Positions 1 through 2,379 of a stretch of 64,000 bases of DNA are shown piece by piece. Origin of the DNA: Escherichia phage ECP2309. The DNA is taken from sequence record PP464953.1, one strand, 5' to 3'. The position numbers and the translations under genes were made by a program. The notes beneath the pieces were generated by a model. It saw only the letters and a program-made list of their open reading frames with translations. It had not been told where the DNA came from and searched no databases. Position 1 is the first letter of the stretch. Each line of letters starts with the position of its first letter.

Positions 1-433
1 GGCGGACGAAATGGGAATACTTCTCATTCTTATAACAATTCTCAAATATCAAGGCAGTGAGGCAAATTAATAGGTGAGGCCGTTCACACAGTGGCACAAC
101 ATTTGCAACCTATCTTGTGTGGAGGAATGAGAATACCTATCATTGTGAGAACCATTATCATTACGGGCAATTTAACATAATACCCATTATGCGCACCACT
201 GGCGATACATACAGGGATTGATAACATGAGTTACTGTTTACGCATATAACAATTATATTTCTTACTATTTGTGTGGGATATAGTTAGCAACCAATAGATT
301 AGATATTGACCTGCAGACTTCTGACCGTCCAGACGTCTAAACGCCCACACACCAAGGGTTATACATACATTCCTGAATGTAAACAGGGCCGCAAAAATGC
401 TACCATACCAGTTTGTAAATTTTTCATGCAGCA

Positions 434-550
434 CTTGACAAAGAGGAGAAAAACTTGTCTGACACTTTTGCCACTTTTGACACTTTTACCTTTGACACAA
501 TGTCACACAATATGCCATAATCTGACACCTTATACACTTTCGACACAATA
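434..550. repeat. cluster of TGACAC(TTTT) direct repeats
   Basis: TTGACA/TGACAC copies at ~436, 460, 477, 492, 523, 542 and inverted TGTCAC at ~501; no ORF of 60 aa or more is credible here. Confidence 0.6.
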
Positions 551-585
551 ACGACTGTTATTATTTCATGTTTCATTGTTCACGT

Positions 586-645
586 ATAGACTATTCCCGC
601 ATAGACTGTTTACGCCTGGATAGTTTACACCTTGACAGTTTACAC
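586..645. repeat. tandem ~15-bp direct repeats with core GTTTAC
   Basis: atagactgtttacgcc / tagtttacacc / cagtttacac read directly; further copies near 235, 1047, 1091 and inverted near 379. Confidence 0.6.
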
Positions 646-657
646 AAAGATGATAAG

Positions 658-896
658 CCATGACATTCGTTTGCATGATAACAATTAACAAGTTAATAAT
701 ATATGACATAATATAAAAGCAGGGCAACTATTAGCAGATCTATAGTTGCCTTGCTTGTTATGTCATGATTAACTAAATACAAGGCAACTATGATCTGATT
801 AATAGATTGCAGACAAACTATCACGGGGGTGATTGTTACTGCTTTTATATTATGTCGCGACTCCGTCGCGCCATGCCATTCGTTTGCATAGTTGCC
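658..896. repeat. nested direct/inverted repeat block
   Basis: ccatgNcattcgtttgcat at 658-676 and 871-889; 16-bp inverted repeat gacataatataaaagc (705-720) / gcttttatattatgtc (841-856); GGCAACTAT at 723-731 and 783-791 with inverted ATAGTTGCC at 742-750 and 888-896. Confidence 0.65.
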
Positions 897-1500
897 TTAT
901 TGTTACAGGTAAAACAATTACATTGTTAACTATTTCTTATCTTTCTCTTAGTCATCTAATGATTCCAGTCAGTATAGTTATGTGCAGTAAACATTAGACG
1001 ACTAAAGATTTCTCTGATTATAGTAACCTATCGTGACAATTTAGGACTGTTTACGAAAAATGTTGACACTTGAGCTGATTTATGTTATGCAGTTTACACG
1101 AATAATTATTTTATGCAGGTATTGACTATTCCGTTATTCTGTGGTTGGAATAAATACTTTGCAGGCTATAGAATGATGTGCGTACGTGAATTCTGAGATC
1201 TGGCGGCTATAGTTACACCCGATTTTTCACGTAGGACACGCTTTTGTGGTTGTGTAAGTGTATGACTTATAAGGGTTTTTAATTGTTGACAGTATACTGA
1301 AGATGTGTATCAGGTTAAATTTTGTGCAATAGTTGCATTACGTGCATTTTTGGAAGGAAAAACGTGTAAAAATGGCCCTGCTACCACACAATGAAAGATT
1401 ATGCAATAGTTATTTTCCATGTATATTTGTACAGTATGTGGGATTGATGGCTAGTCAATTATTCCACTTGCCAGGTAGGGCCGTTTATGGTAGGAGAAGA

Positions 1501-1533
1501 GCAGACAAAAAGAAAGGGGCCTTTAAGCCCCTT
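1501..1533 (-). terminator. rho-independent terminator closing the early array
   Basis: stem AAGGGGC/GCCCCTT followed on the minus strand by TCTTTTTGTCT; 20 nt downstream of the stop at 1552. Confidence 0.6.
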
Positions 1534-1551
1534 GATAATTCAGTTAAGAAA

Positions 1552-1971
1552 TTATAATGATTCGTATATTTCAAAAATCCGATTTGCCAGGTCGTTACGG
1601 TAGCGGAATTTTTCCTCACGTTTGATCATAAGATCTTTATAGCCGTACTCTTTAAGCACTTCATTAACTTTATGGCGGCATACTTTCATATTATCCTGCG
1701 CGTCACCAATAAATCTGTTGCTATGGTGCATGGCTTTAATTTCTTCTTCCAGGACCAGGGCAACTATGCGGACCGGATCAAGCTGATAGGCGGTAACATC
1801 CATGCGGCATTGTAAACGGCTTTTTACGTCTGCCACCGGATATACTGCAACCTCTTCCCCGTCAACATTGACAATAATTAGTTTACCATCGATTTCGAAT
1901 CCTTTCGCCGCCGGACCGTGACAAAAAGCGTTATCAAAGCTATATGCCGGATTATTAGATTTAATGTTCAT
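1552..1971 (-). CDS. hypothetical early protein
   Basis: track ORF 139 aa; ATG preceded by AAGAGGT. Confidence 0.6.
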   Translation of the reverse strand: MNIKSNNPAYSFDNAFCHGPAAKGFEIDGKLIIVNVDGEEVAVYPVADVKSRLQCRMDVTAYQLDPVRIVALVLEEEIKAMHHSNRFIGDAQDNMKVCRHKVNEVLKEYGYKDLMIKREEKFRYRNDLANRIFEIYESL

Positions 1972-2115
1972 GGTGTTTTTACCTCTTAGTTAATTTTCTT
2001 ACAACTTCCCTTCAAAAAAGAATATAGCAAAACTGCCGATCCCTGTCAACCAGGGATAGCATAATTTTTATGTGATCAAGGGGCTTTATTGCCCCTGACC
2101 ATGTAACTTGTTGTA

Positions 2116-2379
2116 TTATTTGTTGCTCATCCAGTTTTCCCAAGCTGCCTGATAATCTGCCTCACTACGGCGGATCTCTTCTTGCTCTTCAAGGCGGATC
2201 TCTTCTTCCAGGTACCCCAAGATGTCAGCCTTTTTAGTCTGGCGTAGCATCCAGTCATCTTTTTTGCGAGTGAAGATCTTATAAGCTTTCTCGCAAACCT
2301 CTTTTTTGCTACCTTTCTGGACTTCAAGAACACGATAAGCCATATATTGAACTAATTTGAGCTGATCAAGACGTTTCAT
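2116..2379 (-). CDS. hypothetical early protein
   Basis: track ORF 87 aa; SD AAAGAGGT; own promoter and hairpin upstream. Confidence 0.6.
   Translation of the reverse strand: MKRLDQLKLVQYMAYRVLEVQKGSKKEVCEKAYKIFTRKKDDWMLRQTKKADILGYLEEEIRLEEQEEIRRSEADYQAAWENWMSNK

Follow-up and report, generated by a model that had tools for sequence, protein, structure and literature searches.

A direct terminal repeat and its adjoining repeat arrays at the genome end of rV5-like phages: a probable cis-acting end-processing region

What is the use of 1.5 kb of phage DNA that is dense in repeats and apparently free of genes? The question arises at the start of Escherichia phage ECP2309 (sequence record PP464953.1), of which a stretch of 64,000 nucleotides (the window) was analyzed, positions 1-1500 being the subject here. 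An earlier note, made from the letters of the sequence, had offered a packaging site, a physical genome end, a second origin, or host-factor binding sites as possible functions. The idea of a genome end has held up well: relatives have their mapped left terminus at the base equivalent to window base 1, and by this homology the window starts at the physical left end of a Vequintavirus genome, with 1-459 constituting a 459-bp direct terminal repeat (DTR). The termini were assigned from homology and record structure, with the relatives' mapped ends as reference. Our overall reading is that the DTR, together with the repeat arrays and the palindrome that adjoin it, forms a cis-acting region for end processing and packaging, to which we would give a probability of about 0.6.

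When window 1-1500 was searched by BLASTN, 119 phage records were matched, all of them Vequintavirus (rV5-like E. coli myoviruses) and mostly at 90-95% identity. In LL12, the DTR was mapped by PhageTerm (PMC6658697); in EdH4 and HdK5, terminal redundancies of 458 bp have been published (PMC6563267); and in Gotham, terminal repeats of 459 bp have been described (PMC7471380). Window 1-459 corresponds to the LL12 DTR at 104966-105424, coordinates that match the PhageTerm mapping exactly, and it aligns gaplessly (95.4%, both ends) with the two annotated 459-bp repeat_region features of Gotham. The records of EdH4, HdK5, and Gotham begin at window base 1 and carry two DTR copies each. Vequintavirus repeats are 95-97% identical to the window DTR and have the same boundaries. 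In ECP2303 (PP261279), which is 100% identical to the window over 1-1500, the first base of the record is window base 460 and the last segment is window 1-459. The isim record has two features tagged 'repeat_region' and nothing more. The earlier note had suggested looking for terminal repeats in related genomes, where the 459-bp DTR was found at both ends, and had taken absence or lack of conservation in relatives as a sign against its proposal; the region is present in 119 of 119 Vequintavirus records, and its architecture recurs in two further genera.

The DTR sequence is found at 126 places in the 119 records. Records not opened at the repeat (all 55 listed) have a single internal copy between convergent gene arrays, and in circularly opened records the DTR lies once in a gene-free gap of ~2.5 kb. 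The order in the gap is the end of a plus-strand small-gene array, ~960 bp of right-unique non-coding DNA, the DTR, the equivalent of window 460-1551, and the terminator of a minus-strand array. By homology to the mapped termini, replicating concatemers are shown to have the DTR once, between two convergently transcribed small-gene arrays. The authors of the LL12 study placed the repeat in a non-coding region with convergent transcripts on either side (PMC6658697), and in the rV5 paper the gap is drawn as a 'non-coding' box and the origin could not be defined (PMC3606486). The DTR is thus already published for the genus, and it is the flanking architecture that appears to be undescribed: in the literature searched, the DTR reports give repeat length and position only, with no mention of boundary symmetry, arrays, or a cross-genus palindrome. 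To a known type of structure, the present analysis adds new details, namely arrays anchored at the boundary, an 8-mer found inverted at the two ends of the repeat, and a palindrome that recurs across genera.

The anatomy of the region was derived from an alignment of ten phages (the window and nine relatives). Junctions and copy numbers were compared in 16 Vequintavirus phages, and a three-genus alignment comprised the window, KPP-1 (Mydovirus), and GEC_vB_MG (Seunavirus). In the ten-phage alignment, the DTR is gap-free and 91-98% conserved, 460-655 is rich in insertions and deletions, and 870-1513 is gap-free again. At base 460 the identity drops from 0.98 to 0.2-0.5, with gaps up to 73%. Because conservation collapses at this base and 460-655 is so rich in insertions and deletions, the repeat-dense part begins exactly where the DTR ends. 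The DTR diverges from the window by 4-6% in the nine relatives, about half of the 6-15% seen at third codon positions of neighboring genes. Positions 1-459 are a distinct unit, gap-free and conserved above the level of silent positions, which the earlier note had missed in treating the entire 1.5 kb as dense in repeats.

Two parts of the DTR are conserved across Vequintavirus, Mydovirus, and Seunavirus. One is an island of ~30 bp, GGCAATTTAACATAATACCCATTATGCGCAC (166-196), near-invariant in the three-genus alignment; the other is the inner end, TTTGTAAATTT ... CACTTGACAAAGAGGAGAAAAACTTGTC (411-459), which terminates at the right boundary. The island has a small dyad, CATAAT-N4-ATTATG, inside it. 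Elsewhere in the DTR, AGACGTCT occurs within 326-343 with two degenerate octamers flanking it, possibly by chance; we take AGACGTCT to be the exact 8-bp consensus of the MetJ 'met box'. A 47-amino-acid open reading frame (ORF) of the DTR was considered as a protein and rejected, as the residues it has in common with a similarly placed annotated ORF of KPP-1 are only those encoded by the conserved DNA island. More generally, the claim that 1-1500 has no credible gene is borne out. None of its ORFs stays open with a coding signature across the nine relatives, variable sites are distributed 58/51/46 by codon phase, giving no 3-base periodicity, nine ORFs of 40-81 amino acids have no PHROG match, and a search of Rfam gave no match at E<=1.

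How are the two ends of the repeat marked? Both boundaries have the same 8-mer, TGYYA|RRC, in inverted orientation: the left boundary reads TGCCA|GGC and the right boundary, on the opposite strand, TGTCA|GAC, with the repeat 3' of the cut. The two window 8-mers agree in register at 6 of 8 positions; within the same DNA, agreement of this degree occurs at an empirical frequency of 0.010. The corresponding 8-mers of KPP-1, TGCTA|GAC and TGCTA|AAC, agree at 7 of 8 positions (empirical frequency 0.0005). The boundary pentamer differs between Vequintavirus and KPP-1, and it does so at both boundaries. Among Vequintavirus phages the junction sequences are invariant (15-16 phages), the right junction being CTTGTC|TGACA(C/T) in 16 of 16. 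The right-unique flank of Gotham, ECP26, and EmilHeitz has an extra TGTCAGG and a reiterated GGAGYGCTGCC just ahead of the left boundary.

The right-unique flank has repeats of its own. In ECP2303, the 250 bp that precede the left DTR boundary (2300-2545) hold three copies of CCTGAAGAG, with a fourth ~370 bp further upstream, and also a duplication with a spacing of ~150 bp. The flank motif ACCTGAAG(A/T)GTCAGCC is found in KPP-1 as well, and a poly-T tract of the flank is T13 in ECP2303 and T6 in relatives.

Inward of the right boundary lie the repeats that had drawn attention to the locus. All four repeat families listed earlier are real and highly non-random, but for three of them the limits need to be redrawn. 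The TGACAC copies, given as 434-550, form an array at 460-546, and what lies at 435-441 is only a lone TTGACAA, within the DTR and 25 bp inside the boundary. The GTTTAC-core tandem repeats, given as 586-645 with dispersed copies, are five units over 579-653. The inverted repeat, given as 16 bp (705-720/841-856), is a perfect one of 18 bp (705-722/839-856). Short repeats in alternating orientation were described correctly: GGCAACTAT is at 723(+), 742(-), 783(+), and 888(-).

The first array (Array A, 460-546, plus strand) has nine TGACAY-type hexamers, 8-15 bp apart (mostly 9-10), with A/T-rich spacers. Exact TGACAC copies are at 460, 478, 493, and 523, and the variants are TGCCAC (469), TCACAC (503), TGCCAT (513), TACACT (533), and CGACAC (541). 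Tandem Repeats Finder reported period 9 and 4.7 copies for 460-498. Of the 80 matches to TGACAY in the window, eight fall in 430-870 (P=9e-8, post hoc). The number of hexamers varies from ~3 to 9, and the first of them adjoins the DTR end in 16 of 16 phages. Each hexamer contains, when read on the bottom strand, the TGTCA pentamer of the boundary. By its spacing, Array A is shown to be helically phased (~10 bp), and from these features a role as a packaging site appears plausible. The array is followed directly by a small palindrome, AATAAC-GACT-GTTATT (547-562), which together with 541-546 gives CGACACAATAAC, a motif found also within the long inverted-repeat arms of KPP-1, 4MG, GAP31, and FENT2 (Mydovirus/Seunavirus).

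The second array (Array B, 579-653, plus strand) consists of five 15-bp units, recognized by eye, with a conserved core, ACTGTTTACRC, and variable 5-nt spacers. Tandem Repeats Finder detected 604-645 (period 15, 2.8 copies), and across phages the period is 15-16 bp. When 52 units from ten phages were compared, the core A(C/T)(T/A)GTT(T/C)AC(A/G) was fixed at 92-100% per position (T6, T7, and C10 without exception), and no constraint was seen at the five spacer positions. Fixed cores next to free spacers are better explained by selection than by recent duplication, which points to the Array B core as a candidate binding core. The copy number ranges from 1 to 10 in the 16 phages, being 1-2 in EmilHeitz, MaxTheCat, Phage 203, and LL12, and 9-10 in typing phage 5 and Murica. 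Single core copies are also present at 233-243 (within the DTR), 1046-1056, and 1091-1099, and all five matches to WGTTTACRC in the window fall in 220-1110 (P=5e-10).

Beyond Array B comes a segment bracketed by two copies, 95% identical, of a 20-bp direct repeat, GCCATGACATTCGTTTGCAT (657-676 and 870-889, plus strand), the second of which overlaps the fourth GGCAACTAT copy (888-896, minus strand). An AT-rich tract (677-704) follows the first copy. It is a hot spot of insertion and deletion, with insertions of up to ~65 nt in relatives, and the G+C content of 601-800 is 0.325. The palindromic element proper spans 152 bp (705-856), its perfect 18-bp arms enclosing an imperfect hairpin of ~30 bp (724-812) and a small hairpin (815-836). 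The window has 6 exact matches to GGCAACTAT, of which the 4 copies given above belong to the end region; three of these copies lie within the palindrome and form its stems. Unusual structure is confined to ~640-860 in a sliding scan of minimum free energy. Folded as RNA, the palindrome has z-scores of -7 to -8 whichever strand is taken; folded as DNA, its z-score is -11. G-U pairs number 1-2 among ~60 on either strand, without strand bias, so that G-U bias does not decide between an RNA and a DNA form.

The palindrome is the best conserved piece of the end region, being present in 117 of 119 Vequintavirus records, always with at least 95% identity. In the FV3 record it has been lost by a deletion between the 20-bp repeats (657-676/870-889), possibly as an artifact of assembly or cloning. 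A mobile element was considered as the source of the palindrome and rejected, there being no second copy in the window; the 20-bp repeats are not adjacent to the arms and are therefore not target-site duplications. The arm itself has no other match within 3 mismatches in the 64 kb. Directly 3' of the right arm is a G+C-rich hairpin, GCGAC-TCC-GTCGC (857-869), kept in all relatives that bear the palindrome.

How much of this architecture extends beyond the genus? In Mydovirus, KPP-1 has a mapped DTR of 514 bp, and PhageTerm places the subfamily in the T7-type class (PMC9862379). The records of DP (annotated repeat 1-514) and KP12 begin exactly at the two boundaries of the KPP-1 DTR. The KPP-1 DTR aligns with that of the window at both ends and at a central island of 27-31 bp; it has ~72% identity to Seunavirus genomes by BLASTN, and the three-genus alignment has the same conserved islands. 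Array A is absent from the Mydovirus and Seunavirus phages examined. At the place equivalent to Array B, 100-180 nt inside the DTR, a single CTTGACAGTTTACAC box is found in KPP-1, GEC_vB_MG, 4MG, and EspYZU15 and was not found in PVP-SE1, GAP31, and FENT2; KPP-1 also has the AT-rich tract. Counterparts of the palindrome are present in 7 of 7 Mydovirus/Seunavirus phages, their perfect arms measuring 18-21 bp and enclosing 152-183 nt. Among these seven phages, three arm positions vary, and about seven positions distinguish their arms from those of Vequintavirus; complementarity is perfect in all. Since the changes are compensatory and perfect pairing is kept, pairing itself must be selected.

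In Seunavirus, PVP-SE1 (with phiTE) has been described as circularly permuted (PMC3475682). Homologues of the terminal repeat with the inner-end motif are present in GEC_vB_MG (1601-2115), which also has the left-boundary motif, and in PVP-SE1. A short DTR of ~514 bp, bounded by TGCTA|GAC, may have been overlooked in this genus, to judge from these motifs.

How might the end be made? From the symmetry of the boundaries we infer that a nuclease uses the 8-mers. The packaging nuclease would nick each of the two strands 3' of its own TGYYA, with 459 bp between the nicks. Such nicks would leave 3'-OH ends on the unique sides and the repeats as 5' single strands, which would be substrates for fill-in, and fill-in of the 5' overhangs would give each daughter genome a full repeat. 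Staggered nicking followed by fill-in is the classical T7/Watson scheme for repeats of the T7 type. The TGACAY array could serve as a loading site for terminase or an accessory protein that positions the nick at the right boundary, and the 15-bp array and the palindrome could be further cis-acting parts of the end-processing region. By analogy, the end region probably helps to cut and package the DNA, and it may combine end processing with another function, the readings being partly compatible.

The closest architectural parallel is the left end of T7. As in the window, a short exact terminal repeat is followed by tandem repeats in which a short core is conserved and the spacers vary, and in both, copies of the core also occur within the terminal repeat. 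Rederived from NC_001604, the T7 repeat occupies 1-160, and 12 CCTAAAG heptamers with a 13-bp period follow at 175-340, with copies inside the repeat as well. There are also differences. The cores are unrelated (CCTAAAG as against TGACAY and ACTGTTTACRC), and there is no sequence homology; the window has two types of array and a large palindrome, unlike T7; its array begins at the boundary itself, whereas that of T7 begins 15 bp in; its genes point toward the end, whereas the early promoters of T7 read away from it; and the window phage is a 136-kb myovirus without a phage RNA polymerase, again unlike T7. On these comparisons, T7 is an architectural analogue and not a homologue by descent. In T3 and T7, the sequences recognized for packaging are found no more than 5% of the genome length from the ends (PMC3276506).

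Another parallel is the pac site of P1. Hexamer repeats flank the terminase cut there, the hexamers carry the Dam sequence GATC, and packaging is headful with permuted ends. Short hexamers are clustered at the cleavage point in both systems (in the window, TTGACAA inside and the TGACAY array outside), but TGACAY lacks GATC and the window repeats are almost all on one side of the cut. Nor does the window behave like a headful pac site, since the same fixed boundaries recur in independent records and studies.

Several points weigh against an end-processing and packaging role for the whole region. The arrays and the palindrome are tied to packaging by inference from sequence, and the symmetry of the boundary 8-mers is short and was spotted post hoc. 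Array A is missing in Mydovirus and Seunavirus despite homologous DTR ends, and therefore it is no universal requirement. Array copy numbers vary widely, Array B being down to 1-2 copies in four viable phages, and the FV3 record is without the palindrome. The function of the end-adjacent arrays of T7 is not known to have been firmly established, and the analogy therefore has little mechanistic weight. PhageTerm predicted headful packaging for one Vequintavirus, BpE1AUH (PMC13211470).

What else could the region be? An origin of replication beside the genome end, which could coexist with the DTR and packaging, is possible, if on balance doubtful. The 15-bp units would be iterons, the tract 677-716 the unwinding element, and the palindrome the origin palindrome. 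Origins of the lambda type have iterons, an AT-rich tract, and a palindrome in this order, and the order of elements in window 579-856 is the same. Array B has a conserved core, variable spacers, and a single orientation, with the AT-rich tract and then the palindrome after it, and its motif is almost restricted to the end region of the 64 kb. The same order is seen in Mydovirus/Seunavirus (GTTTACAC box, AT-rich tract, palindrome), and the origin of rV5 is undefined (PMC3606486). However, the window differs from a lambda-type origin: an initiator gene in cis is lacking, as are sites for DnaA and IHF, the iteron number is not constant, and the period is 15 bp, which lacks helical phasing. Neither a DnaA box within 1 mismatch nor an IHF consensus was found in 1-1500, a result that also gives no support to the host-factor sites suggested in the earlier note. 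The iterons are reduced to 1-2 in 4 of 16 phages (EmilHeitz, MaxTheCat, Phage 203, and LL12) and to one box in Mydovirus/Seunavirus; the AT-rich tract is an unconserved hot spot of insertion and deletion; and the region has convergent transcripts on either side, whereas the replication genes, at 21-35 kb, are ~20 kb away. A narrower proposal, which we regard as speculative and rather improbable, is that the module found subfamily-wide (CTTGACAGTTTACAC box, AT-rich tract, and compensated palindrome) is the Vequintavirinae origin placed by the DTR, or else a hairpin device that primes duplication of the repeat. If true, the module would be a new type of cis element linking replication and end formation in large DTR myoviruses. 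We also think it unlikely that the region is chiefly a transcription boundary, with the arrays incidental and the palindrome acting as back-to-back backstop terminators or as a structured RNA of ~130 nt made from an extended -10 promoter (TGACATAAT, 704-712). Hairpin 717-756 followed by TTTTATATT on the minus strand, annotated as a terminator in Murica, the plus-strand hairpin 815-836 followed by CTGCTTTTATATT, and the RNA fold z-scores of -7 to -8 would fit this idea. So would the retention of TGACATAAT in every relative bearing the palindrome and the expectation of the rV5 authors, who looked for bidirectional terminators here and found none (PMC3606486). But the terminator scan called neither hairpin, and the homologous arms of KPP-1 and Seunavirus have no T tract behind them, so terminator features are not what is conserved. 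Moreover, the -35 region is unconserved owing to insertions, Rfam gave no match, G-U pairing is nearly nil and without strand bias, and sequence conservation of 95-99% exceeds what a terminator needs.

The remaining explanations deny the arrays or the repeat the significance given to them here. That the arrays are functionless by-products of slippage and recombination in unconstrained end-adjacent DNA is quite improbable. Their copy number is indeed highly variable among near-identical phages, and the neighboring spacer, 890-1500, evolves at about the neutral rate; but the cores are fixed where spacers vary, and a recent duplication would have copied the spacers as well. Furthermore, Array A always begins at the boundary and repeats its pentamer, and other genera have kept the GTTTACAC box and the palindrome. 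Headful packaging with circular permutation, in which base 1 would be a convention of the record and 1-459 no terminal repeat, would agree with the BpE1AUH prediction (PMC13211470) and with the description of PVP-SE1 and phiTE as permuted (PMC3475682). The former was weighed low against four concordant mappings: four independent studies gave repeats of 458-459 bp at identical coordinates (PMC6658697, PMC7471380, PMC6563267), and the two boundaries are exact start or end points in several records that were deposited independently. This leaves the explanation with very little room. An RNA antitoxin mimic was suggested by phiTE of the same subfamily, whose pseudo-ToxI consists of expandable non-coding tandem repeats that neutralize ToxN (PMC3475682). 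It is effectively refuted for the window, where the units are 9-10 and 15 nt as against 36 nt for ToxI (about 34-45 nt for the type III class), Rfam has no match at E<=1, and no conserved promoter lies upstream of the arrays; the phiTE locus is also non-syntenic, lying between same-strand genes near the terminase gene.

The cis-acting end region that we favor is of practical interest, since phages of the rV5 type are isolated widely for use in therapy and biocontrol and are now being engineered. Correct annotation, synthetic rebooting, and the packaging of engineered DNA all benefit from knowledge of the exact genome start and of the 459-bp repeat. Records that have been opened at an arbitrary base, or that have spurious small genes over the end region, are numerous and can be corrected. 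T7 and T3 are the only phages in which the formation of exact terminal repeats is understood in detail. The inverted 8-mer, the boundary-anchored hexamer array, and the cross-genus palindrome offer mutable targets for studying it in a large myovirus, and natural variants are available for comparison: FV3, without the palindrome, and EmilHeitz and MaxTheCat, nearly without the 15-bp array.

The rest of the stretch up to the first gene is simpler. The non-coding spacer (890-1513) is gap-free and diverges by 6-11%, compared with 6-15% at third codon positions, which is about the neutral rate. It has Array-B-like motifs at 1046-1056 and 1091-1099 and TTGACA at 1062 and 1286, and within it neither a conserved ORF nor unusual folding was found. 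The terminator of the early array that the earlier note had mentioned was located by the terminator scan at 1514-1533 on the minus strand. It is an intrinsic terminator with an 8-pair stem, 5 of the pairs being G-C, and a T tail; it ends the minus-strand small-gene array, and homologues are annotated in Gotham, HdK5, and Murica. As a sigma-70 promoter, the best match (492-521, 11/12, extended -10) was rejected, the stretch being missing from most relatives, and other matches were near chance.

Some observations concern the records themselves. In NHEP1, Mangalyan, MiataMamis, GEC_vB_MG, and FENT2, 8-11 tiny 'hypothetical proteins' are annotated over the homologous end region; this looks like over-annotation, none being backed by conservation. 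Eighteen 'UNVERIFIED: Campylobacter phage' records (MG0656xx, e.g. MG065644) are Vequintavirus coliphage genomes, ~95% identical to the window, and are probably mislabelled or contaminant assemblies. A pattern scan of IMG/VR with a boundary 22-mer returned one contig only, from which nothing further was learned. The 87-amino-acid product of window 2116-2379 (minus strand) is annotated as 'DNA translocase FtsK' in isim and APCEc02, a label that is implausible at such a size and looks like a propagated misannotation. The first gene (139 amino acids, PHROG 12277, function unknown) and its flanks, window 1552-2100, form a cassette of ~570 bp. Gotham, FV3, and APCEc02 are without this cassette, and in them the terminator is followed directly by the next gene.

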